DNA of 64,000 nucleotides, from the NCBI GenBank assembly GCA_964418315.1, contig CAYQMO010000002.1, positions 579 to 64,578 on the forward strand. Reading direction: 5' to 3'. The stretch comes from an uncultured Geobacter sp. (lineage in GTDB: Bacteria > Desulfobacterota > Desulfuromonadia > Geobacterales > Pseudopelobacteraceae). The notes below the pieces were generated by a model. That model searched no databases and had not been told where the DNA came from. It saw only the letters and a list, made by a program, of their open reading frames with translations. Below are positions 1 through 49,675 of this stretch, one piece after another (position 1 is the first letter of the stretch; each line of letters begins with the position of its first letter). A program made the translations under genes and the position numbers.

Positions 1-1457
1 GCCGTTTGTGCCGCTGCCAGTGTCTTGGTGTCCGTTACCACTGCAGCAGTGGTGCCGTTGTAGACCTTGCTGGTGGGCACTGAAAGGCCGCTCATGGTTA
101 GAGCTTTGGTGGTAATGGTGCCGTTGCTGCCGCTGAGTGAACTGCCTGCGGAGAGGTAATAGTTGGCGGCATCGGTGCTGCCAAGTGTCAGCGAGCCGAT
201 GGTGAAACTCTTGTTGCCGCTGCCGACGTTCTTGGTTGAGAAGTTGCCGTTACCGGAAACGCTGACGACATCATTGCTTTCCAGTCCGGTCAGGCCGAGG
301 CTGACGTTAGTCATGGCGGTCGTGCCGTCATAGACTTTTGTCAGGCCGGTGGCGGTCGCCGTGAGTGCCTTCTGGTTGACGGTAAGCGCGCCAACCACTG
401 TCAGCGTATTACTGAAATTTGCGCTAATCCCGCTGATGTTGCTTGCCGTAATGCTGTAGTTTCCGGCTTTCAGAGCACCATTTGTGCTGGCCTGCGGGCT
501 TTGCGGGGCAAGGGAAAAAACGGCACTGCCTCCGGCACCGTCGCTGTAGGTATAGGTGTTGCCGCTTACCGTAGGTGCCGCCAGCGTTTGAACCACGTTA
601 CTACCGTTCATGTATCTGGCGTTGGCGATGCTGTAGGATGGCGCGGTGCCATATGTGGAGGCGACATTGTTTACTATCACCAGAAGCTGCCCGGCAGGGA
701 CGACGGTATAGTTGCCGCTGGCGTAGCTGATGGAGTAATTGCCGTTGTTGGCGGTAACGCCGGAAGGTGTCAGGGCGTTTGTGTAGGTACCGGCCTGGGT
801 GTTTACGCCGCCAGTATTGCCATCCGGGCCGCTGGCGCTGCGAGTGATGGCGAGGCTGCCCAGGCCAAGTACTGCGGATGTTTCCCCATTGACAAAGCCG
901 TTGTAGCTCACGCCGTTGTAGGCCGCGACTCCGGTCGAGGCCAGGGTGACGAAATTGGCGTCGTTGTTGGCCTTCACCGTGAGCGGTGCGGGGTTTATGG
1001 TGCCGCTGCCGTTGCTCCAGCTCAGTGTGTAGTTGCCGGCATCGGTACCGGCAATGGCCACGGTGCCTACGTTGATTGTCTGTGTGCCCTGGTTGGCGGA
1101 GCTGAACACTGGCGCACCAGACACGGTGACTACATCACTGCCCACAATCCCCACCAGACCGCCATAGCCGTTGCTGTCCACGGGCATGGCGGTTGTGCCA
1201 CTGTAGGTCTTGGTTACTCCAGTGGTGCTACCGGCCAGCGTCAGGGTCTTCTGGCCGATAGTCAGGTTGGCTGGCACATAGGTAATGTTGTAGTTGCCGT
1301 TGGCGGTGTTGGTCATCGTTCCCTGCTGAATCTGATACGTCACGCCGCCTGCGCCGCTGGTCTCGCCGGATGCGCGGGTCAGACTGCCGGTGAGGCTGTC
1401 GCCGCTTAACAAGCCAACCCCCGTGCCCACAGTGCCGGTGGTGTTGGTGTATGTCAG
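1..1457 (-). CDS. Downstream (C-terminal) part of the TpsA-like exoprotein, read in a frame shifted by one nucleotide relative to ORF 1228..6084; open to the window edge
   Basis: Hand translation of the minus strand from 1457 (ctg aca tac acc ...) gives LTYTNTTGTVGTGVGLLSGDSLTGSLTRASGETSGAGGVTYQIQQGTMTNTANGNYNITYVPANLTIGQKTLTL..., followed by KVYDGTTAM / NYxIxY / LTV units with no stop down to position 1. This is the same repeat grammar as the upstream ORF. The ORF-track frame turns into H/R/Q-rich nonsense right after ANYAITFT. Confidence 0.6.
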   Translation of the reverse strand, partial: MTYTNTTGTVGTGVGLLSGDSLTGSLTRASGETSGAGGVTYQIQQGTMTNTANGNYNITYVPANLTIGQKTLTLAGSTTGVTKTYSGTTAMPVDSNGYGGLVGIVGSDVVTVSGAPVFSSANQGTQTINVGTVAIAGTDAGNYTLSWSNGSGTINPAPLTVKANNDANFVTLASTGVAAYNGVSYNGFVNGETSAVLGLGSLAITRSASGPDGNTGGVNTQAGTYTNALTPSGVTANNGNYSISYASGNYTVVPAGQLLVIVNNVASTYGTAPSYSIANARYMNGSNVVQTLAAPTVSGNTYTYSDGAGGSAVFSLAPQSPQASTNGALKAGNYSITASNISGISANFSNTLTVVGALTVNQKALTATATGLTKVYDGTTAMTNVSLGLTGLESNDVVSVSGNGNFSTKNVGSGNKSFTIGSLTLGSTDAANYYLSAGSSLSGSNGTITTKALTMSGLSVPTSKVYNGTTAAVVTDTKTLAAAQT

Positions 1458-4400
1458 TGGTAAAGGTAATGGCGTAGTTGGCTGCCTTGGCCCCCGTTCC
1501 CAGCGCAATGTCGTAGCTACCCACATTGCTGCCGGCTTCGCGACTCAACGTGCCGCTCACATCGGCCATCGCATCGTTCTGCGCCACCGTGGCCAGGCTA
1601 CCGCCGGTTACCGTGACGGCCAGAGTCGGTTCATTCTCGCCGTATACCTTGCTGGCGGCGCTGGCCGTCAGGGTGATGGGGCGCTGGGTAATGCTCAGGT
1701 TGGCAGGCACAAAAGCGATGGCGTAGTTGCTGTTGGCCACCGTGCCTTGCGCAATCGCATAGGGCCCACCCGCGACCGTCTCGCCTGCGGTGCGCGACAG
1801 GCTGCCGGTAAAGGTGTCGGTGCCGACGCGGCCGCGGCCGGTGCCGGCTGCTTCCATGGCGTAGGTCAGGCTGGGATCAGCATTGCCATACACCTTGGTT
1901 TGCGCATCCGCCGTCAGGGTGATCGGGCGCTGGGCAATCGTCAGCGTGCCATCCACATAGGTGTAACTGTAATTACCTGCGGTGTAACCACTGGGGCGGA
2001 TGGTGTAGCTACCGGCATTGACCGCGCCGCTCGACGAGCCGGTGCTGTAGTCCAGTGCGCCAGGTAGGTCTGAGGCGCCTTGCCCCAACACAAAGCCGCT
2101 ATAGGTCACCCCGTTGCCGCCGCCTGGTAAGGCCGCGCCGTCATAGGTCTTGCTCGCGTTGTTGGCGGTGACCGTCAGCGGTGCCCTATCCACCGTCAGA
2201 TTGCCGTTGCTGTAGGTGATGTTGTAGTTGTTGCTGTCGAAGGTGCCACCCGTGGCGGCGGAAGGGGTAATGGTGTAAGTGCCGCGCGCGGCGGTGTCCA
2301 TTGCTCCGCTGCTGCTGAGCGTCACCCCGCCGATGGTGTCAGTGTTCTTCAAGCCGGCTGGGCTAAAGCCGGTAGTGCCCAGGTTCAGCGTGGTGCCGTA
2401 GTTTTTGCTTTGCCCCGTGGCCCCGATGGTGAGCGGTGCGCGGTTCACCGTCAGCGCGCCATTCACATAGGTGATGCTGTAGTTGCTGGCCATAAACGTG
2501 CCGTTGGTGGCATTGCTGGGGACAATGCTGTACGGGCTGCCGCTGACGCCGGCGGTATCAACCGCGCCGCTGCTGGCTAGCGTTAAGCGGCCAATGGTTT
2601 CGCCGTTTTGCAGGCCGGACGACGTGAACAAGTTGGTGTCCGTGGTGTTGCCCATCGTTAGGATGTCGCCATAGGTTTTGCTCTGCGCGCTGGCGGTGAC
2701 GGTGAGCGGTGCCTGCGTCACGGCAAAGTTGGCCGGCACCACGGTTATGGCGTAGTTGCTGTTGGCCAGCGTGCCCACGCTGTTAATGGCGTAGGTGTCA
2801 ACGTCTTCACCGGCCACGCGGGCCAGTGCGCCGATGAAGGTGTCGTTATTGACCCGACCGCGACTACTGCCTGCGGCCTCTACAGCATATGTATATGCCG
2901 GGTTGGCGGCACCGTAGACCTTGGTCTGGCCGCTGTTGACGGTGATGTTGATCGGGCGAGGGCTGACGGTATAACTGCTGTTGGTGCCCCATGTGATGGA
3001 GTAGTCGCTGGCGCTGCCGCTGGTGTAGCCGATGCTCAGCAGAGTGGGGTTGCTTGCGTAGCTGTAGGAACCTGCTGCGGTGGTGCTGGTCAGGAAGCTG
3101 CCGTAGCTGAGCGTCAGGTTGCTGGAGCCAACCAGCGTATACCCTGAGGAAATTGTGCCGCTCGGCGGGGTGTCGCCATAAATGCTGGAAAGAGCGCTGG
3201 TGAAGTTGATAGTGACCGAAGTGGTGCTACTACCCATACGCCAAGGAGTAGCACCAAATGTTAGCGTCGGATAAGCTCCATCGGCACCGGTTATGCTCCA
3301 GCCCGCATTTGTAAATGTGCTCAGGGTTTTCATCTGGGCCGTGGTTTTACCTACTGCCGCACCACCGCTTGTAGCCATACCACTAGTTTGGTTATCCCAG
3401 AAGCTATTTGTAATAGTTCCCCCTGTATAACCTGAAAAGCCACCCTTTCTGGAGGTACTTCCACTACTAACACTTCCGGTTGAATAAGAATTTGAAATAG
3501 TCCCGTTATTTCCAACAAAACCACCGACATAATACCCACCTGTACCACTTCCGGTTGAAGTCGCACTTCCGGTTGAGTAACAATTTGAAATGGTTCCGCC
3601 TTGCCCAGAAAAACCACCAACATATGTGGTAGATGAAGTAACATTTCCAGTTGAATAAGAATTTGAAATGATTCCGCTGCTTTGCCCAACAAAGCCTCCA
3701 GCACTGCTGCCGGTTGCAGTAACACTTCCAGTAGAGTAAGATTTTGAAATGGTTCCAGTGTCATAACCTACAAAACCGCCGGTCATGCTAGCTCCACTAA
3801 CAGTTCCAGTTGAGTAAGAATTTGAAACGGTTCCGCCATTATTACCTACAAATCCGCCGGTATAAGCACCCGTTGCAGTAACTGATCCGGTAGCATAAGC
3901 GTTTGAGATAGTTCCGCTCATATTGTATCCAACCAGCCCGCCGGTTCCGTTAGCTCCCGATACATTAACAGCAGCGTAGGAATCTGAAACGATTGACGAA
4001 CCGGTATTGAGCCCAAGCAATCCTCCGGCACTGTCAGATGCAGTAATACTTCCGCTAGTAATACCTATATTTTTAATAGAGGCTGACGAATTTGTGCGTC
4101 CGAATAGTCCTTGATTATACTCAGTAGGGCGATTGATCGTCAGGTTGCTGACACTATGACCAAGTCCATCAAACTTTTTTGTAAATTGTGTAGCGCTATT
4201 GCCAATTGCTACCCAGTTGGCTATGCTGTTTAAGCTAATATTGCTACCCAAGGCATAGTTGTTTACAGTATCATTAATCATGGCTTGGAAAGAGCTTGCA
4301 TAATTGACAACCCTATAAGTCACAAGTGCGCCGTCACTTCCAAGTTTGGTGCTAAATCTTTCGCCCTCAAGAAGATTGATTTGACCTGTAAAGTTATTGC

Positions 4401-6084
4401 CGGTGTTGTTATTCAAAGTTCCGGTTAATCCAAAGTTATAAGTCGCCGTATTCCCAGCCGCAACAGCGCCTTGACCATAGTATAATGATACATTGCCGTT
4501 TGTGGCCGTGATATTGGCATTGATCGCGATGTTTCTATAGGCGCTAAGTGTTAAGCTGTAAGCGGATGTCCAGCTAATAGCAGAAGAGACTGTGATGTCA
4601 CCATCTGTGCCACTTTCACCACTTGTAGTGCTTGGTGTATTACCTCCATTGGTCGTGATAGTTACATTACCAGTTCCCAAAGCTGTCCCTATTGTGCTAG
4701 CCAGCGTACTGTCTATCGTGATATTGACAGGGTCGATGAGCCACTTTTTTGCTTTGACCTGCGCGCCTTCTTGGATAGTGAAGTGCTCGCCGGAAGTCTC
4801 GACCCAGCCGCCGTCGCCACCTTCTGCACCGCCTTTTGAGAGGATTTCGCCACCCACCGTGGTGATTGAGTTGGCGTTGTGGATATCCGACCAGAGCACA
4901 GCAGTACCACCATTGCCGATCTGCGTTGCACTGACGTCTATCTTCGCCCCCTGTTCCATGGTGACAGTGGTTGCCTGGTGCATGGTGCCGCTCCCCTGCC
5001 AGCCGCCGCCCACCAGCACCGTGCCGCCGCCGGTTTTGCCGGTAGCATCAAGCAGACTGCCGCTGGCAAGGGTGATATGATCGCCGGAAAGAGTGATGGT
5101 GCCACCTTTTACCCCATCCCCACCCCGACCCTCCCCTTGAAGGGGAGGGAGTATTTGTGTGAGAGTTGACTTGCCTGAGACATCCAGCGTGCCACTATTG
5201 GTGACATTGCCCCCTTCAATGACGATCTCGCCATTGCGCTCCACCATGCTGCGGGCGCGAACCTTGCCGCTGTTGTTGACAACCGTAGCCAGTAGGGCAT
5301 CAGCAGCCGAAGCAGTCATTACCACCGTGCCGCCGTCAGCCTCAATTACGCCGCTGTTGGTCACCTGGGCGTTATATGCCGCTTTATCTACCTTGATCGC
5401 CATCAGGCCATTGGGATCAAAACCGAGAGTAATCTCATCACCCGCAGCCAACCCTGTCGTCCCCTTGGTAGTAACAATGGTTCCGGCGTTCTCGACTGAA
5501 TTACCAAGCAGCGCCACAAAACCGCCAGAGACATTCCCCTGATTGACCACCGAACCGCCTGCTCCATCTTTAAAGAACGAATATTTCCCCGCCAGGAAAT
5601 CACTGTCCTTTATGCTGAGGCTGGACGCCACCAGACCGCCGACATTGACGCTGGCACCGGGAGCAAAGAGGATGCCGGAGGGGTTGGTCAAAAAGACCCG
5701 GCCATTTGCTGTCAACGAGCCGAAGATGTTGGAGGGGTTATTTCCCAGCACCCGGTTTAGCAGAGTTGACTGGCTGGAAGGCTGTGCGATGTTGACCGCC
5801 TCACCTTTGCCAATGCCGAAGGAATTCCAGTTAATAATCGCCTGGTTTGTTCCCTGGGTGATGTTCATCTGGTTAGTGGCCGGCGTGCTGATGGCAGCCT
5901 GTCCGGCGGCAACCTGTCCGCCTGATGGCAGCGCAAACGCACCGCTTGCGGCCATAATCAGCGAAGTCACAACGGCAGCGGCAACGGTAATCGGCGACGG
6001 CCCGCCGTTGCCTTTGATAATCTCGGCGGCGACAACCCAGCGTTCTTTTGCTTTGCTCCAGATCAGGCGGTATGCTTTATTCAT
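1228..6084 (-). CDS. Two-partner-secretion (TpsA) filamentous-hemagglutinin-family exoprotein: ESPR signal, TPS domain, beta-helix repeats, GLUG-type repeats, MBG-type repeats. The last ~76 codons of this ORF are probably out of frame.
   Basis: The N-terminus MNKAYRLIWSKAKERWVVAAE is an extended signal peptide region. NQAIINWNSFGIGKGEAVNIAQPSSQSTLLNRVLGNNPSNIFGSLTANGRVFLTNPSGILF is a TPS/haemagglutination-activity domain. Then come G/T/S-rich repeats, GGxVGxNxGTISNSYSTGSV repeats, and repeated ...KxYG/YDG...NYxIxY..G.LTV units. Confidence 0.9.
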   Translation of the reverse strand: MNKAYRLIWSKAKERWVVAAEIIKGNGGPSPITVAAAVVTSLIMAASGAFALPSGGQVAAGQAAISTPATNQMNITQGTNQAIINWNSFGIGKGEAVNIAQPSSQSTLLNRVLGNNPSNIFGSLTANGRVFLTNPSGILFAPGASVNVGGLVASSLSIKDSDFLAGKYSFFKDGAGGSVVNQGNVSGGFVALLGNSVENAGTIVTTKGTTGLAAGDEITLGFDPNGLMAIKVDKAAYNAQVTNSGVIEADGGTVVMTASAADALLATVVNNSGKVRARSMVERNGEIVIEGGNVTNSGTLDVSGKSTLTQILPPLQGEGRGGDGVKGGTITLSGDHITLASGSLLDATGKTGGGTVLVGGGWQGSGTMHQATTVTMEQGAKIDVSATQIGNGGTAVLWSDIHNANSITTVGGEILSKGGAEGGDGGWVETSGEHFTIQEGAQVKAKKWLIDPVNITIDSTLASTIGTALGTGNVTITTNGGNTPSTTSGESGTDGDITVSSAISWTSAYSLTLSAYRNIAINANITATNGNVSLYYGQGAVAAGNTATYNFGLTGTLNNNTGNNFTGQINLLEGERFSTKLGSDGALVTYRVVNYASSFQAMINDTVNNYALGSNISLNSIANWVAIGNSATQFTKKFDGLGHSVSNLTINRPTEYNQGLFGRTNSSASIKNIGITSGSITASDSAGGLLGLNTGSSIVSDSYAAVNVSGANGTGGLVGYNMSGTISNAYATGSVTATGAYTGGFVGNNGGTVSNSYSTGTVSGASMTGGFVGYDTGTISKSYSTGSVTATGSSAGGFVGQSSGIISNSYSTGNVTSSTTYVGGFSGQGGTISNCYSTGSATSTGSGTGGYYVGGFVGNNGTISNSYSTGSVSSGSTSRKGGFSGYTGGTITNSFWDNQTSGMATSGGAAVGKTTAQMKTLSTFTNAGWSITGADGAYPTLTFGATPWRMGSSTTSVTINFTSALSSIYGDTPPSGTISSGYTLVGSSNLTLSYGSFLTSTTAAGSYSYASNPTLLSIGYTSGSASDYSITWGTNSSYTVSPRPINITVNSGQTKVYGAANPAYTYAVEAAGSSRGRVNNDTFIGALARVAGEDVDTYAINSVGTLANSNYAITVVPANFAVTQAPLTVTASAQSKTYGDILTMGNTTDTNLFTSSGLQNGETIGRLTLASSGAVDTAGVSGSPYSIVPSNATNGTFMASNYSITYVNGALTVNRAPLTIGATGQSKNYGTTLNLGTTGFSPAGLKNTDTIGGVTLSSSGAMDTAARGTYTITPSAATGGTFDSNNYNITYSNGNLTVDRAPLTVTANNASKTYDGAALPGGGNGVTYSGFVLGQGASDLPGALDYSTGSSSGAVNAGSYTIRPSGYTAGNYSYTYVDGTLTIAQRPITLTADAQTKVYGNADPSLTYAMEAAGTGRGRVGTDTFTGSLSRTAGETVAGGPYAIAQGTVANSNYAIAFVPANLSITQRPITLTASAASKVYGENEPTLAVTVTGGSLATVAQNDAMADVSGTLSREAGSNVGSYDIALGTGAKAANYAITFTTDIHQHHRHCGHGGWLVKRRQPHRQSDPRIRRDQRRRRRDVSDSAGNDDQHRQRQLQHYLCASQPDYRPEDPDAGR
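3395..4045 (-). repeat. About 9-10 tandem GLUG-type coding repeats (GGFVGxxxGTISNSYSTGSVT) inside the exoprotein gene
   Basis: The translated segment SDSAGGLLGLNTGSSIVSDSYAAVNVSGANGTGGLVGYNMSGTISNAYATGSVTATGAYTGGFVGNNGGTVSNSYSTGTVSG...GGFSGYTGGTITNSFWDNQTSG has a period of roughly 22-25 aa. Confidence 0.75.
5111..5150. repeat. Family-A palindromic element (C-rich tail + CCCTCCCCTT-G-AAGGGGAGGG hairpin), in frame inside the exoprotein CDS
   Basis: ACCCCATCCCCACCCCGACCCTCCCCTTGAAGGGGAGGGA is 40/40 identical to the reverse complement of 46417-46456. Here it is translated as ILPPLQGEGRGGDGV. Confidence 0.85.
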
Positions 6085-44666: not shown

Positions 44667-44685
44667 AAACAAACCAAAGTCAAAG

Positions 44686-44760
44686 GCAACCCCAACCCCT
44701 CCCAACCTCCCCTTATCAGGGGAGGAGCAAGACTAAAGTCCGGGGGGCTAGGGGGGTTGC
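44686..44760. repeat. Family-A element doublet (MITE-like unit with termini GCAACCCC ... GGGGTTGC) in the hsdR/hsdMS spacer
   Basis: GCAACCCCAACCCCTCCCAACC-TCCCCTTATCAGGGGA-GG ... CCGGGGGGCTAGGGGGGTTGC, that is, tail + hairpin followed by an inverted tail. Confidence 0.7.
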
Positions 44761-44774
44761 TTTTAAGGAATTTC

Positions 44775-47696
44775 ATGCTCTCCAAAGAGACAAAAAAGAA
44801 AATAGATGATGCTCGCGATATTTTGGTGGGGCAACTGCCACTACCGTCTGATCAGGTCGAACTGATAACCATCGCTCTGATTTACAAGTTCATGGATGAT
44901 CAGGATGAGGATCTTCGTCAGCTTGATTTTGCGGAAGCGTTTTTCTCCGGTGATCTGAAACAATATTCATGGCAGCGCTTGATGAGTAATGAAATCGATG
45001 CCGATGAACGGGTGAATGTATTCACCAAAGGGATTGAGGAAATTCAGAAGGCAGCGCACATTCCTCTCCTGTTCCGTGAAATATTCAAAAACACTTTTCT
45101 CAAATTTCGCGATGGCCGTACCCTGCACCTTTTTCTCGGAGTCATCAACGGCTTCAGCTATGATCACAGTGAAGAGCTGGGCAACGCCTTTGAATATCTG
45201 CTGATGAGCATGGGGGCACAGGGGGAGAACGGTCAGTTTCGCACACCACGCAACATCATCGACTTCATTGTTGAGGTGGTCGATCCGGACAAGGGTGACA
45301 CTATCCTCGACCCGGCCTGCGGTACCGGCGGCTTTCTCCTCTCTGCATATAAGCACATTCTGCGGAAATACACGACCGACCGTGAACATTACCGGATAAC
45401 GCTTAACAACGAAGAAATCGAAGGAATACCGGTCAACTGGGGTGACAAGCTAACTACCCAGGATCTGAAACAGTTAGGCGTCAGCATTGAGGGATATGAC
45501 ATCACCCCGCAGATGACGCGGCTTGCCAAAGTAAATCTCTATCTGCACCAGTTCAAAAGCCCCCGCATTCACGAATACGACACCCTTACGTCAGAAGGTC
45601 GCTGGAAGGATAAGTACGACTGCATCCTAGCCAATCCGCCGTTTATGACGCCAAAGGGTGGTGTCTCGACTCACTCCAAATTCCGTATCCGCGCCACCAA
45701 GGCGGAAGTGCTCTTTTCTGATTACATCCTGGAACACCTCACCCCCGATGGCATGGCCGGTTTCATCGTGCCGGAAGGGATCATTTTTCAGAACAGTGAT
45801 GATTATGTGGAACTGCGCAAATGGCTGGTAAATGGTGCCGGTCTTTGGGCGGTGGTATCTCTGCCAGCCCAGATTTTCCAGCCTTACTCGGGTGTTAAGA
45901 CTTCGATCCTGTTCATTGATCGCAAGATAGCGCGAAGCCGGGATGAGATTATTCTCGTCAAGGTGGAAAGCGATGGTTATACCCTCAACACCAACCGCGT
46001 ACCGACAGCCAGGAACGATTTGCCAGAGGCGTTAAATCTTCTGACTATCGGGAAAAAGAGTCTGGATGAGTTGCGTGATTATCTGGAGAAGAACGGTGGC
46101 AAGCAGGATATGCCCAAGGCATTGATCAAACCACGTAGCGAGTTTGCCCGATTGGATGCCTACAAAGCGCAGAGCGCGGCGTTCAGCCTGATTCGCAAGC
46201 AGCATGAAAAGTGTCTGGCGGTGGAAGAGGAAATTCAACTTCTACCCCATCCCCTCCCTAACCCTCCCCTTGAAGGGGAGGGGACAAAAAACCTTCCTCC
46301 GGCTGAGAAGAAGAAAGCTGATGAAGTGGAGAAGAAGCGAGTTCGACTTAAGGCCGCTTTGACTAAACAAATCGCAGAATTTTTCAAGATAGCCGGAACT
46401 GCCTACAACAAAATCCTCCCTCCCCTTCAAGGGGAGGGTCGGGGTGGGGATGGGGTGATTGCCCTTCAGTCATACTTTGATAACAACTTGAAAGAGGCTG
46501 TCATTGCTTATGGTGCAGATGGCACAAAGGTCGGTGATCTCACTCCGCACCTGCGCGACTATCTGGACGGGTTGCGGGAATATAGTTTGAGTTTTGATAA
46601 ATATGCTGGAGGGAATGGGCCAACAGTGCACGCTATACACGAGATGGTATTGCTTGGTGACGTTTGTTCTTTTGAATATGGCAAACCCCTGAAAGAAGAA
46701 AATCGTATAAATGGAGAGTTTCCGGTTTATGGTTCAAACGGAATTGTTGGTTATCACAACGAATTTTTAGTAGAAGCACCATTTCTCGTTGTTGGTAGAA
46801 AGGGAAGTGCCGGTTCTGTCCATTATTCTGAGAAGAGCGGCTTTCCGATCGATACAACGTTTTTTGTCAAACTTGCGCAGGAAGATAAAATACTGTTGAA
46901 GTACCTTTATCCATTGCTTCAAAAGCTGAGTCTGAAAGACCTTAACACTCAAGCGGGAGTTCCCGGACTTAACAGGAATGACGCTTATCAACTTCAAATC
47001 CCACTTCCTTCCCTCGAAATCCAGAAGCAGATTGTCGCAGAAATTGAGACGTACCAGAAGGTTGTAGACGGCTGCAATCTGATTATTGAGAACTACAAGC
47101 CAGAAATACAGATAAATTCTGAGTGGCCTATGGATGAGCTTGATAGTCTGTGTGACATTGTAAGAGGAAGCTCTCCAAGGCCGCAGGGTGACCCTAAACT
47201 TTTCGGTGGACCAGTTCCAAGACTGATGATTGCAGATATAACACGTGATGGGATGAGGGTTACGCCTAAAATTGATTCATTGACCGATCTTGGTGCAACG
47301 AAAAGTCGCCCAATGGATTCTGGTAGCGTCGTTATGGCGGTTAGCGGCAATCCTGGCCTGCCAGCAATCCTAAAAGTTAATGCATGCATCCATGACGGTT
47401 TTGTTGGATTCAGGCAGTTAGATACATCTCAAATCATACACGAATTTCTTTACTATGTCCTTCTTGACAAAAAAGACGAACACGGTTCACAGTCTGTAGG
47501 TTCTGTATTTAAAAACCTGACAACTGACCAAATTCGAGCAATCAAAATCCCCCTCCCTCCACTCGAAACCCAGCAAAAAATAGTCGCTGAACTTGAGCAA
47601 GAAATGTCTGCCGTGGCAGGTGCCAAGCGCCTGAAAGCCAAGATGGAAGCCCGTATCCGCACCACCATCAGCAGGGTGTGGGGAGAGAAGGCATGA
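44775..47696 (+). CDS. Fused Type I-like methyltransferase-specificity protein (HsdM N-terminal ~470 aa + two-TRD HsdS C-terminal ~350 aa)
   Basis: The MTase part has FRTPRNIIDFIVEVV, DPACGTGGFL (motif I) and LANPPFMTPKGG (motif IV). The S part has two variable TRDs, each followed by a conserved helix: IPLPSLEIQKQIVAEIETYQKVVD and IPLPPLETQQKIVAELEQEMSAV. ATG at 44775 has an AAGGAA Shine-Dalgarno sequence. Confidence 0.85.
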   Translation: MLSKETKKKIDDARDILVGQLPLPSDQVELITIALIYKFMDDQDEDLRQLDFAEAFFSGDLKQYSWQRLMSNEIDADERVNVFTKGIEEIQKAAHIPLLFREIFKNTFLKFRDGRTLHLFLGVINGFSYDHSEELGNAFEYLLMSMGAQGENGQFRTPRNIIDFIVEVVDPDKGDTILDPACGTGGFLLSAYKHILRKYTTDREHYRITLNNEEIEGIPVNWGDKLTTQDLKQLGVSIEGYDITPQMTRLAKVNLYLHQFKSPRIHEYDTLTSEGRWKDKYDCILANPPFMTPKGGVSTHSKFRIRATKAEVLFSDYILEHLTPDGMAGFIVPEGIIFQNSDDYVELRKWLVNGAGLWAVVSLPAQIFQPYSGVKTSILFIDRKIARSRDEIILVKVESDGYTLNTNRVPTARNDLPEALNLLTIGKKSLDELRDYLEKNGGKQDMPKALIKPRSEFARLDAYKAQSAAFSLIRKQHEKCLAVEEEIQLLPHPLPNPPLEGEGTKNLPPAEKKKADEVEKKRVRLKAALTKQIAEFFKIAGTAYNKILPPLQGEGRGGDGVIALQSYFDNNLKEAVIAYGADGTKVGDLTPHLRDYLDGLREYSLSFDKYAGGNGPTVHAIHEMVLLGDVCSFEYGKPLKEENRINGEFPVYGSNGIVGYHNEFLVEAPFLVVGRKGSAGSVHYSEKSGFPIDTTFFVKLAQEDKILLKYLYPLLQKLSLKDLNTQAGVPGLNRNDAYQLQIPLPSLEIQKQIVAEIETYQKVVDGCNLIIENYKPEIQINSEWPMDELDSLCDIVRGSSPRPQGDPKLFGGPVPRLMIADITRDGMRVTPKIDSLTDLGATKSRPMDSGSVVMAVSGNPGLPAILKVNACIHDGFVGFRQLDTSQIIHEFLYYVLLDKKDEHGSQSVGSVFKNLTTDQIRAIKIPLPPLETQQKIVAELEQEMSAVAGAKRLKAKMEARIRTTISRVWGEKA
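46244..46283. repeat. Family-A palindromic element, forward orientation, in frame in the M-S linker
   Basis: ACCCCATCCCCTCCCTAACCCTCCCCTTGAAGGGGAGGGG is translated as LPHPLPNPPLEGEG. It matches the reverse complement of 46417-46456 at 36 of 40 positions. Confidence 0.85.
46417..46456. repeat. Family-A palindromic element, reverse orientation, in frame in the M-S linker
   Basis: TCCCTCCCCTTCAAGGGGAGGGTCGGGGTGGGGATGGGGT is translated as ILPPLQGEGRGGDGV. Its reverse complement is identical to 5111-5150. Confidence 0.85.
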
Positions 47697-47947
47697 GTCA
47701 AAATCAACGTCAAAACCAACCCCCCTCAGTCCCCCCTTATCAGGGGGGAGGCTTTTTAGCTCCCTCCCCTGATAAGGGGAGGGTCGGGGAGGGGTTTGCT
47801 TTTGACTCTGGTTCTGACTCTACCTTCCTCCCTTACAGCAAAAACCTCACCGCTCTTGCCCGTGAAAACCGCTGTAACCCTACAAAAGCCGAAAGCAAAA
47901 TCTGGCGCGAAGATCTTATGCTTCGGCTTATGCAGGTGACATCCTGA
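47693..47947 (+). CDS. 84-aa micro-ORF: repeat-derived N-terminus plus only the N-terminal helix of a DUF559-type (Vsr-like endonuclease) protein; possibly a gene remnant
   Basis: The start overlaps the hsdMS stop (ATGA) and the stop overlaps the darT start (TGATG). LPYSKNLTALARENRCNPTKAESKIWRE matches the usual DUF559 leader (LPYN..L...AR.LR.N.T.AE..LW..L). No nuclease core follows. Confidence 0.4.
   Translation: MSQNQRQNQPPSVPPYQGGGFLAPSPDKGRVGEGFAFDSGSDSTFLPYSKNLTALARENRCNPTKAESKIWREDLMLRLMQVTS
47713..47798. repeat. Head-to-head doublet of family-A-like elements downstream of hsdMS
   Basis: AAAACCAACCCCCCTCAG-TCCCCCCTTATCAGGGGGGA (47713-47751) and CTCCCTCCCCTGATAAGGGGAGGG-TCGGGGAGGGGTTTG (47760-47798). 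The outer tails are mutually inverted. Confidence 0.7.
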
Positions 47948-48594
47948 TGCCAGCGCCCCAACCCACCCCAATATACCGCATCCTCCACATCGACAACCTG
48001 CCGGCTATTCTTCAGCGTGGTGGTCTGCATGCACCTAATTTTACGCCGGATGATGGTTTTGTGTATCGCGCCATTCACAACACCGACGTTCAGGCAGCAC
48101 GACGGGCGTGCTCAATTCCATGTGGGCCAGGTGGGACTGCGCATGACTATGTGCCGTTCTATTTCGGTTATCTTGCCGTGATGCTTCTCAATCTCAAGAC
48201 GGGTAGAGTTTCTGGCTATAATCAGGGTCAGGAACCGTTGATATATCTCGTGAGCACAGCACAATCAATAGTAGAAAACGGCGCTGAAATTGTGTTCTCC
48301 GATGGTCATGGATTAGCTGCCCTTACGAGTTGGTATGATTCATTGTGTCACTTTGATGAAATTGACTGGAACATCGTCTGCCAGCGTTACTGGCGTGATA
48401 ACGATGAGGATAATGACCGGCAGCGCCGCAAACAAGCCGAATTTCTGATTCATAGATGGTGTGATTGGACACTTATCAAAGAAATCGGAGTGCAGAACAA
48501 TAAAATTCGTGATATTGTCGCCACCCATCTCAACAAATTTTCCGGACGACAACAGCCAATCGTAACGGTGCGACCTGAATGGTATTATTTCTGA
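47947..48594 (+). CDS. darT: DarT (DUF4433) ssDNA ADP-ribosyltransferase toxin
   Basis: IYRILHIDNLPAILQRGGLHA is the typical DUF4433 start. YVPFYF and the conserved KQAEFLIH segment, which carries the putative catalytic Glu, are present. Length is 215 aa. An AGGTGA Shine-Dalgarno sequence lies 7 nt upstream. Confidence 0.85.
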   Translation: MPAPQPTPIYRILHIDNLPAILQRGGLHAPNFTPDDGFVYRAIHNTDVQAARRACSIPCGPGGTAHDYVPFYFGYLAVMLLNLKTGRVSGYNQGQEPLIYLVSTAQSIVENGAEIVFSDGHGLAALTSWYDSLCHFDEIDWNIVCQRYWRDNDEDNDRQRRKQAEFLIHRWCDWTLIKEIGVQNNKIRDIVATHLNKFSGRQQPIVTVRPEWYYF

Positions 48595-48604
48595 AGAGGG
48601 TTCT

Positions 48605-49675
48605 ATGATCAACTATACTAACGGAAATTTGCTAAAAGCTGAGGCTGATGCACTAGTAAACACCGTGAACTGCATTGGTTTTATGGGTAAAGGTATTGCC
48701 CTACAGTTCAAACAGGCGTTTCCGGAAAACTTTAGAGCATATGAGCGCGCTTGTAAGTCGAATGCAGTACAGCCAGGGAGGATGTTTATTTTTCCCACCG
48801 GCACTATGTTAAATCCACGCTACATAATCAACTTTCCGACCAAACGTCACTGGAGAGGTGACTCGCGACTGGAGGATATTGAGTCTGGCCTCAAAGCACT
48901 GATTGAAGAAATAAGATCTCTCAATATTAGATCAATTGCTGTGCCACCGCTTGGGTGTGGCAATGGTAAACTCGACTGGGATGTGGTGCGCCCCATGATG
49001 GAACTGGCCTTTGCTCAGTTGCCTGAGGTTGAGGTTACGCTTTATGCACCACAAAGTGCGCCGGAGGCAGCTAGTATGCCAGTTGCTACCAGTCGTCCGG
49101 AGCTTACTATTGCACGAGCCTTGTTTATAAAGCTTATGGACTGCTATTCGGTACTTGATTATCGACGTACACTATTAGAAATCCAGAAACTTGCTTATTT
49201 CCTTCAAGAGGCAGGAGAGCCACTTCGTCTCAAGTATGAAGCAGGACATTATGGCCCTTATGCCACCAACCTCAATAAGGTGCTTGAGCGCCTGGAAGGA
49301 CACTTTATTCGCGGTTATGGCGATAGCCAAAAACCTGATACCGAGATTGAGTTATTGTCGGGGGCAGTACAGGAAGCAGAGATCTTCCTGACAAATAAAC
49401 ATGATTCGCTTGACAGAATGAAGATGGTCTGCGCTTTGATCGAAGGCTTTGAAACGCCCCACGGCATGGAGTTACTGGCAACTGTTCACTGGGTCGCCCA
49501 TTACGCTACTACAAAAGCGACGGATGAAGACACTGCAATTAGTGCCGTACAGCAGTGGAGTGCTCGTAAAATGAGGATGTTCCGTCCACAACACATACGC
49601 ATTGCATGGAAACGGCTAGTGCATTGCGGCTGGCTGGATTTGCCGAATCAACTTATGTTGTCATCACGAGGCTGA
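48605..49675 (+). CDS. darG: DarG antitoxin (N-terminal macrodomain + C-terminal DarT-binding domain)
   Basis: NGNLLKAEADALVNTVNCIGFMGKGIALQFKQAFPEN...IINFPTKRHWRGDSRLEDIESGL...SIAVPPLGCGNGKLDW is a macrodomain. Length is 356 aa. The gene starts 10 nt after darT. Confidence 0.85.
   Translation: MINYTNGNLLKAEADALVNTVNCIGFMGKGIALQFKQAFPENFRAYERACKSNAVQPGRMFIFPTGTMLNPRYIINFPTKRHWRGDSRLEDIESGLKALIEEIRSLNIRSIAVPPLGCGNGKLDWDVVRPMMELAFAQLPEVEVTLYAPQSAPEAASMPVATSRPELTIARALFIKLMDCYSVLDYRRTLLEIQKLAYFLQEAGEPLRLKYEAGHYGPYATNLNKVLERLEGHFIRGYGDSQKPDTEIELLSGAVQEAEIFLTNKHDSLDRMKMVCALIEGFETPHGMELLATVHWVAHYATTKATDEDTAISAVQQWSARKMRMFRPQHIRIAWKRLVHCGWLDLPNQLMLSSRG

Follow-up and report, generated by a model that had tools for sequence, protein, structure and literature searches.

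Short palindromic repeats that are selfish DNA and lie in frame within protein-coding genes were reportedly described in Rickettsia by Ogata et al. in 2000 (Rickettsia palindromic elements, RPE). Repetitive extragenic palindromic (REP) sequences are tagged at one end by a conserved tetranucleotide, GTAG or CGTC (Di Nocera et al. 2013, PMC3733652). For Geobacter bemidjiensis, 'Palindromic sequences' (Gbem_R2001 onward) were listed in Table S6 of the genome paper, without a function, as a consensus doublet and a solo form, both intergenic (Aklujkar et al. 2010, PMC2996986). Here we analyze a repeat unit of ~39 nucleotides (nt) in a 64,000-nt stretch of DNA from an uncultured Geobacter sp. (contig CAYQMO010000002.1; 'the window' below means this whole stretch). 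Two copies of the unit lie, in opposite orientation, inside a gene that joins the modification (M, HsdM) and specificity (S, HsdS) subunits of a Type I restriction-modification (RM) system in one polypeptide of 973 amino acids (aa).

Type I systems canonically encode M and S separately. This statement of an earlier note on the same DNA is true, but an engineered M-S fusion of EcoKI ('Type IMS', Roberts et al. 2012) is functional with HsdR alone (PMC3510504), and entry 7EEW of the PDB, annotated as a methyltransferase subunit, matches the M part and one target recognition domain (TRD) of the window protein. The M-S gene of the window is a natural counterpart of the engineered fusion. According to the earlier note, the linker between the M and S domains was built from a pair of inverted palindromic elements, and this pair may have created the M/S junction or may now occupy it.

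We conclude from the alignments below that the two elements are later, independent, in-frame insertions into predicted loops of a pre-existing M-S fusion. That the fusion is ancestral and the elements are copies of a dispersed repeat that entered it secondarily and in frame we regard as very probable and, when this claim is judged on its own, as highly probable. The pair itself is real and inverted, with sizes slightly different from those first given: a repeat search found two arms of 39 nt (not 40), complementary at 36/39 positions (92%), with 135 nt (not 133) between them. Translation bore out that the entire 213 nt are read in frame (...LPHPLPNPPLEGEGTKN...ILPPLQGEGRGGDGV...); the lengths of the insertions, 51 and 39 nt, are each divisible by three, and neither contains a stop in the frame used.

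In close relatives the sites are empty. DNA alignment revealed a clean 51-nt gap at the position of insertion 1 (46243-46293) in loci L001, L003 and L204, and a clean 39-nt gap at that of insertion 2 (~46418-46456) in L001 and L003; in the latter two loci the sequences before, between and after both gaps all aligned to the window. L001, the closest relative, encodes a protein (P0004) with 90% aa identity to the window M-S protein; L003 encodes one with 74% identity (P0003) and is syntenic, with NTP-transferase/PGM, HsdR and GH57 neighbours as in the window. As these nearest relatives carry the fusion and the central linker and neither element, the elements are later than the fusion.

The notion of a linker built from elements did not survive. 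The elements supply ~30 of the ~180 linker residues (aa ~440-620), and the segment between them (LPPAEKKKADEVEKKRVRLKAALTKQIAEFFKIAGTAYNKI) is a native, homologous linker helix, which aligns with the linker of element-free proteins (P0002-P0004, P0007 and P0009 in A1, an alignment of 24 homologues). In A1 the linker was homologous over its full length. In an AlphaFold2 model of only moderate confidence (mean predicted local distance difference test score, pLDDT, 66), insertions 1 and 2 map to loops of low confidence, aa 495-508 and aa 550-557, flanked by helices 462-488, 509-540 and 559-571. On the preferred reading, a very short selfish repeat struck an ancestral M-S linker on two independent occasions, and the insertions are tolerated as Pro/Gly-rich loop extensions, like those made by RPE.

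The fusion itself is old. A whole-protein search returned M-S fusions of 760-1000 aa as 119 of the 120 best homologues, the exception being P0018 (603 aa); source names among these 120 include Leptospiraceae, Bacteroidales, Ignavibacteriota, Melioribacteraceae and Patescibacteria. The name used by NCBI for such proteins is 'restriction endonuclease subunit M/S'; the RM protein of the window thus belongs to a known, widespread fused family, and the M-S fusion with its helical linker is ancestral to this large family. The outcome is the one that the earlier note had named as refuting its reading: orthologues without elements carry the same fusion.

Within this family the M part and the linker of close relatives (P0002-P0012 in A1) are near-identical to those of the window, with TRDs exchanged for unrelated ones; single-TRD versions of 760-820 aa are P0004, P0009 and P0013-15. 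TRD exchange and single-TRD forms are ordinary S-domain shuffling and half-S variation inside one fused family.

The location of the elements between the M and S domains could suggest that the pair created the junction by fusing separate hsdM and hsdS genes. We consider this extremely improbable: the fusion with a homologous linker exists without elements in distant phyla, the closest relatives are fused with their sites empty, and the sequence between the elements is native linker. The pair occupies the junction but did not create it, and a role as a maker of fused restriction enzymes is unsupported because the fusion is old and widespread. Repeats are also a classic source of mis-joins, and the protein cluster has one member, from one contig, so the copies might be thought an artefact of metagenome mis-assembly. 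This is very improbable as well, given that the gene is colinear with its homologues before, between and after the elements and that both insertions keep the frame; moreover, related contigs of independent samples have analogous insertions at the same sites, and isolate genomes that are finished (Noviherbaspirillum, Tahibacter) contain the element as well.

Phase variation is known in Type I systems, and the inverted pair might be viewed as a selected regulatory device of the RM gene. Expression of M and S would be tuned or uncoupled by a long mRNA stem, by a G-quadruplex in the RNA or by an RNase III site; alternatively, the pair would be an inversion switch turning S off. The mRNA stem foreseen in the earlier note is indeed predicted: the two arms were paired over ~39 bp in the minimum-free-energy structure (RNAfold, -123.6 kcal/mol, z = -9.1 versus shuffles). 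A G-quadruplex motif is present on the sense strand of the M-S gene (46431-46449), and inversion between the arms in silico introduced stops from aa 514, leaving an M-only product; an inversion could therefore serve only as an OFF switch. A regulatory device is nevertheless unlikely. Neither element is present in the nearest relatives, other relatives have different arrangements at these sites (doublet, composite or solo), and across phyla the same 39-mer is found both between genes and within unrelated ones; furthermore, no recombinase gene adjoins the locus (ORFs, Pfam) and no sense-strand terminator-like site was seen within the open reading frame (ORF). RNase III processing, ribosome stalling and inversion truncating the protein at aa 514 are disfavoured, as the pair is missing from the nearest relatives and the sites are occupied differently in others. 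With secondary insertion as the preferred reading, the opposite orientation, the mRNA stem and the sense-strand G-quadruplex motif are best seen as by-products.

The repeat unit consists of two parts, first a C-tract arm, ACCCCATCCCCNCCCNNA, then a 9-bp hairpin, CCCTCCCC-TTGA-AGGGGAGGG; it begins with ACCCCAT and ends with GGGGAGGG(AG), the hairpin being CCCTCCCC/GGGGAGGG. On the complementary strand the hairpin comes first, then a G-tract arm that can form a G-quadruplex, and the C-tract strand is capable of forming an i-motif. For the 21-nt core palindrome three sites were observed, with none expected (100 shuffles). A repeat search and a Hamming scan identified about six copies in the 64-kb window, five of them clustered around the RM locus inside 3.2 kb. 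Canonical G-quadruplex motifs (at least four G runs, each G3 or longer; loops of 1-7) numbered five in the window, and every one was inside an element copy: 5118-5136, 44690-44712, 46251-46269, 46431-46449 and 47776-47794. No Rfam family reached its gathering score anywhere in the window; at the elements nothing beyond sub-threshold matches to look-alike hairpins (miRNA models) was seen.

The copy farthest from the RM locus, in an ORF for an FhaB/two-partner-secretion-like protein, is the reverse complement of linker insertion 2, with 39/39 positions identical, and it is missing from a homologue that is 86% identical (P0242). In-frame insertion with absence from orthologues was thus observed in two genes of the window, and an in-frame copy was also found in an aminotransferase gene of locus L050, from a metagenome-assembled genome (MAG) of Rhodocyclaceae. 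In the latter (L050, ~3600-3900) a composite copy adds ~45 in-frame residues (…GHGESPPRIMKHAPLTPIPSPTLPLKGRETTDAPCSSPFKGEAGRGMGNVFHAK…) to the aspartate/aromatic aminotransferase. The tail-to-tail pair just 3' of the M-S stop is not present in L001, L003 and L204; its + copy, 47720-47751, is followed by TTTTT and is terminator-like (predicted site 47730-47749). A cyanobacterial origin, with the element as a small dispersed repeat, was considered and dropped, as GyrB groups the window with Geobacteraceae; its identity to GyrB of uncultured Geobacteraceae/Desulfuromonadales MAGs is 92-100%.

A 38-mer of the element, with four positions left free, was used to scan one genome per species. At least 119 stretches matched, from beta-, gamma- and delta-proteobacteria and Nitrospirae. 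Sources among the matches listed were Burkholderiales, Rhodocyclaceae, Gallionella, Sideroxydans and Noviherbaspirillum; others were Lysobacteraceae, Tahibacter, Geobacter (many UBA9976 contigs), Syntrophus/Smithellaceae, Desulfuromonadaceae and one Nitrospirae MAG. The matches include the finished isolate genomes of Noviherbaspirillum and Tahibacter. In the viral set the 38-mer was found in 5 of 2.9 million contigs; phages are therefore no obvious vehicle.

Flanks of the copies, among the matches listed, were unrelated between genomes, and the conserved unit is therefore ~39-45 nt long, with the flank consensus WA-element-AGTTTT. Target-site duplications of 2-5 nt were not above expectation among 129 listed copies, and ~35 of 135 listed copies were inside long open frames. 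Two arrangements recur: a head-to-head doublet (hairpin and G-arm, ~20 nt, C-arm and hairpin) and a tail-to-tail composite, sometimes with tandem hairpins. In L063, L068, L079, L035 and L054, 3' of some copies, the hairpin alone repeats in tandem with a period of ~29-30 nt (hairpin plus a conserved ~9-nt spacer), and several Rhodocyclaceae loci have a longer conserved left flank, gcgaatcgccaccccgcatcatgaaacatgccccattgac, in common; so larger composite repeats exist.

The same sites were struck in different lineages. The syntenic locus L204 (protein P0005) has a head-to-head doublet with another hairpin variant within a codon or two of window insertion 2, and L205 (P0008) has a tail-to-tail composite at the first linker site. 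The spacer between the R and M-S genes holds an insertion of ~90 nt with a copy in the window and a different solo copy in L003; it is ~10-15 nt long in L001, L204 and L205. In a distant FhaB homologue from Sulfuritalea (P0252), PPLPQGEGRGEG is located in the same loop as the window FhaB copy. Recurrent sites may be either preferred targets or the sole positions at which selection lets insertions survive.

To find genes associated with the element, all ORFs of the at least 119 loci with the 38-mer were clustered. The sole recurrent non-housekeeping family near copies, among the matches listed, was a protein of ~100-130 aa identified as DUF559 (Pfam, E-values 1.3e-34 to 3.9e-38), with MTES_1575 as a weaker match. 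Five of the six DUF559 genes near 38-mer matches were bracketed by the element as an inverted repeat: the hairpin and G-arm were situated 10-100 nt 5' of the DUF559 start, and the C-arm and hairpin overlapped the stop. The right repeat of L052 (Oxalobacteraceae bacterium) was identical to the window copies at 38/38 positions.

Because these loci had been chosen for carrying the element, an independent sample was taken, 80 metagenome DUF559 loci found by protein patterns alone. Of the 72 DUF559 loci with adequate flanks, 37 had an inverted repeat spanning the gene that was 20 nt or longer, and 20 of these repeats reached 30 nt or more. With a stricter flank requirement, repeats of at least 20 nt were found at 27/50 DUF559 positions versus 1/163 shifted controls. 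A sequence-independent test of the architecture, with both sides in the canonical orientation, was positive for 36/67 DUF559 genes and 0/166 shifted controls; when at least one side was sufficient, the numbers were 59/67 and 4/166. Among the 20 longest repeats (30 nt or more), 18 had a consistent orientation, with the G-arm proximal on the upstream side and the C-arm proximal on the downstream side. Hairpin variants (GGGGAGGG, GGGAGAGGG, GGGGGAGG) retain complementarity, and the type of hairpin tracks DUF559 sequence similarity (0 of 2000 permutations). Statistically, therefore, the element forms the terminal inverted repeats of small DUF559 cassettes in many phyla, in the order hairpin and G-arm, gene, C-arm and hairpin.

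DUF559 is placed in the Vsr clade of PD-(D/E)xK nucleases, a clade that includes a group I intron homing endonuclease (PMC3424549). The association of DUF559 with the element appears to be undescribed in the searchable literature. Literature on DUF559 and on REP/Vsr gave no description of a repeat-flanked DUF559; a full-text search for the element sequence returned nothing relevant, the only description found being that of the G. bemidjiensis genome paper (PMC2996986), and the G. metallireducens supplements had no match to the element. A blastn search with a complete DUF559 cassette against plasmids gave one irrelevant match.

By analogy with REP sequences, their doublets (REPIN) and the REP-associated tyrosine transposase (RAYT), it may be inferred that the DUF559 nuclease acts on the structured ends of the element, and that solo copies and doublets are non-autonomous derivatives of DUF559 cassettes, inserted without target-site duplication. 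In full, the proposal is that the 39-nt units are terminal inverted repeats of undescribed, cross-phylum, minimal selfish cassettes of ~450-500 bp encoding only a DUF559 Vsr-like nuclease; the nuclease would act on the hairpin, G-quadruplex or i-motif ends and would drive the spread of solo copies and doublets into intergenic DNA and in-frame protein loops. We put this forward as a tentative possibility, and the statement that DUF559 mobilises the element is to be read with the same reserve.

Several observations weigh against this account. Insertion of a single 39-nt end, rather than a doublet, is not accounted for by it; nor is the near-invariance of the element sequence across phyla. None of the Geobacter UBA9976 loci with copies had a DUF559 gene, among the matches listed. 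Striking of the same sites in different lineages could reflect target preference, microhomology-driven copying or selection instead of classical transposition. Finally, the window has no intact DUF559 gene, the sole candidate (Pfam, hhalign) being a weak remnant of 13 columns.

This candidate is a short ORF that follows the - copy at 47762-47801 and may be a decayed DUF559 cassette. Its hhalign match aligned RCNPTKAESKIWR with RvklTDAEnkLWR (residues 65-77, E 0.004, probability 8%), and no Pfam match was obtained even at E = 10. A decayed cassette in this place would agree with five copies being crowded into 3.2 kb. Further downstream, the first codons of the darT gene (MPAPQPTPIY; 47956-47971) are encoded by CCCCAACCCACCCCAA, which resembles the C-tract arm without the hairpin; the resemblance may be coincidental, or the putative cassette may have had its now decayed right end here.

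Real secondary insertions might also have spread with no part played by DUF559, by means of another trans-acting enzyme, replication slippage, template switching or microhomology gene conversion; in that case the hairpins would serve DUF559 genes as terminators or insulators, or these genes would be a preferred place to land. The missing DUF559 gene of the window points in this direction, as do the solo single-end insertions, which are hard to derive from a two-ended cassette, and the resemblance of a + oriented element with its T-rich flank to an intrinsic terminator. Sites are reused, and the native sequence there is partly like a hairpin arm (CCACTTCA versus CCCCTTCA). Still, the bracket geometry was highly specific to DUF559 genes in the comparison with shifted controls and consistent in orientation, the 38-mer is the same in different phyla, the type of hairpin tracks the protein, and no second recurrent non-housekeeping family was near the copies listed. 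We regard spread unrelated to DUF559 as a somewhat doubtful alternative to mobilisation by the nuclease.

Coordinates of the features in and around the RM locus, and of the copy in the FhaB-like ORF, are collected in Table 1.

Table 1. Features of the window that bear on the repeat element and the M-S fusion gene (CR, conserved region)
Feature	Position	Strand	Description
Copy in FhaB/two-partner-secretion-like ORF (1228-6084, - strand, 1618 aa)	5111-5149	+	Same element frame as in the M-S linker; peptide ILPPLQGEGRGGDGV
HsdR-like restriction subunit, 849 aa	42117-44666	+	N-terminal PD-(D/E)xK nuclease region and superfamily 2 (SF2) helicase; partner of the M-S fusion
R/M-S intergenic insertion	44675-44760	+	Copy 44690-44725 (C-tract arm and hairpin) and G-rich tail 44741-44758
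M-S fusion gene, 973 aa	44775-47696	+	HsdM N-domain, N6-adenine methyltransferase (MTase), helical linker, TRD1/CR1, TRD2/CR2
N6-adenine MTase part of M-S gene	45171-45995	+	Pfam N6_Mtase
Insertion 1, 51 nt, 17 codons	46243-46293	+	aa 490-507, LPHPLPNPPLEGEGTKN; element (C-arm and hairpin) and 12-nt A-rich tail
M-S linker copy of insertion 1	46244-46282	+	
Native central linker segment	46294-46417	+	Helix aa ~509-540, outside any element; protein and DNA alignment with element-free homologues, L001 and L003
M-S linker copy = insertion 2, 39 nt, 13 codons	46418-46456	-	aa ~548-561, PPLQGEGRGGDGV; in mRNA, hairpin and G-tract arm with G-quadruplex motif 46431-46449
TRD1/CR1 of M-S gene	~46629-47099	+	
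TRD2/CR2 of M-S gene	~47115-47603	+	
Tail-to-tail pair of degenerate copies just 3' of M-S stop	47720-47751, 47762-47801	+, -	From repeats and sequence
Possible DUF559 N-terminus remnant (tentative)	47828-47917	+	LPYSKNLTALARENRCNPTKAESKIWREDL; directly 3' of the - oriented element, position as in intact DUF559 cassettes

By its domains the gene is a natural Type I RM M-S fusion, in an operon with an HsdR-like gene. The N6-adenine MTase assignment of the earlier note was confirmed: motif I (DPACGTGGFL) and motif IV (NPPF) are both present in the translation, N6_Mtase was matched at aa 133-407 (Pfam, E 7e-44), and PADLOC assigned MTase_I to aa 1-423 (E 4e-82). The two-TRD specificity unit at the C-terminal end was equally sound, with Methylase_S matched in two stretches (Pfam, E 7.7e-35) and Specificity_I at aa ~619-775 and ~780-951 (PADLOC); its two TRDs and two conserved helices are in the same polypeptide, and the best homologues carry both domains. 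In a PDB search the protein matched Type I M and S chains. An alternative start, TTG at 44757, would lengthen the protein by 6 aa; it is unlikely because the homologues begin at MLSKETKKK and AAGGA is present 8 nt ahead of the ATG.

The HsdR-like ORF had matches to ResIII (Pfam, 2.6e-37), HSDR_N_2 and REase_I (PADLOC, 2.7e-47); its best named match was the EcoAI/FtnUII-family R subunit of NCBIfam, at 191 bits, under the cut-off. An 848-aa HsdR orthologue is located directly 5' of the M-S gene in L001, L003, L204 and L205. Type IB systems have been proposed to descend from IA/IC via an M-S fused intermediate (Roberts et al. 2012, PMC3510504); a natural M-S fusion with an IB-like R subunit (EcoAI/FtnUII family, under the cut-off) may bear on this scheme.

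The window is chromosomal, with mnmG, gyrB, gyrA and cysS present. Directly 3' of the RM operon (47947-49675) there is a complete toxin-antitoxin/defence pair, DarT (215 aa) and DarG (356 aa). The cargo of the slot between the M-S and GH57 genes differs in syntenic relatives: L003 has a 341-aa unknown protein and L204 has HATPase, DUF4325 and PIN genes. This slot looks like a defence-island hot spot among conserved housekeeping genes.

As selfish DNA of a REP-like and RPE-like kind, the elements represent a new variant. They show clearly that palindromic selfish DNA can reside in frame within proteins outside Rickettsia as well; the insertions are confirmed by the empty sites of close relatives, and different repeat variants struck the same loops in related lineages. 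The 38-mer is near-invariant over beta-, gamma- and delta-proteobacteria and Nitrospirae; to our knowledge, ordinary REPs and miniature inverted-repeat transposable elements (MITEs) are not so invariant across phyla. The DUF559 association is the part worth following up: if it is true that the nuclease mobilises the ends, DUF559, a large domain of unknown function, would acquire a role, and a new class of REP-like system, based on a PD-(D/E)xK nuclease, would be defined. In practical terms, the repeats put Pro/Gly-rich peptides into many predicted proteins, and annotation pipelines as well as G-quadruplex surveys should take heed.

Among the described systems, the engineered EcoKI 'Type IMS' and the natural M-S or M-half-S proteins ('restriction endonuclease subunit M/S', PDB 7EEW) share with the window gene the union of HsdM and HsdS in one polypeptide with a separate HsdR, and an M C-terminal tail that leads into the S N-terminus. 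Unlike the engineered enzyme, the window gene is natural, has a helical linker of ~180 aa and an EcoAI-like (Type IB-like) R subunit, and contains two foreign 39-nt elements.

The element and RPE have in common that palindrome-containing repeats are found in frame at permissive sites, are missing from orthologues and code for extra loop peptides. RPE, however, are 100-150 bp long and confined to Rickettsia, whereas the element is 39 nt long, unrelated in sequence, rich in G/C tracts and near-identical across several phyla. The ends of MITEs are those of an autonomous, enzyme-encoding element. The 38-mer is identical to the inverted repeats bracketing DUF559 genes, whose cassettes would have to be autonomous mobile elements for the likeness to hold. 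The in-gene copies of the window differ from MITEs in being single ends rather than two terminal inverted repeats, and in the lack of a target-site duplication (129 copies, among the matches listed).

The sequences of G. bemidjiensis (PMC2996986), from the same bacterial family, have the same design: a hairpin (CCCCCTCCC..GGGAGGGGG) with a G-tract arm, a spacer, then a C-tract arm with a hairpin, as well as a solo form. The doublet in the M-S linker of L204 closely resembles the Table S6 consensus; the window copies are a different sequence variant. The catalogue gives intergenic multicopy sequences only, without in-gene copies, a DUF559 link or spread across phyla.

The Vsr-fold homing endonuclease I-Bth0305I and the Vsr repair nuclease are in the same PD-(D/E)xK clade as DUF559, and this fold serves mobile selfish genes as well as enzymes that nick DNA at particular structures or mismatches (PMC3424549). 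DUF559 cassettes differ from these in being free-standing and bounded by hairpin/G-tract inverted repeats.

With REP/REPIN-RAYT systems (Y1/HUH) the element shares short GC-rich hairpin repeats, many dispersed copies, frequent inverted doublets, the absence of target-site duplication, and inverted copies of the same repeats on both sides of a small nuclease gene. The element has no GTAG or CGTC tag, and no cluster of Y1 transposases was seen near copies among the matches listed, where no scan was aimed at RAYT. In contrast to REP/REPIN-RAYT, the flanked gene encodes a DUF559 Vsr-like PD-(D/E)xK nuclease and not a Y1 transposase, copies are also present inside genes, and the sequence is common to several phyla rather than species-specific. 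Taken by analogy, the evidence suggests a REP/RAYT-like system built on a different nuclease.

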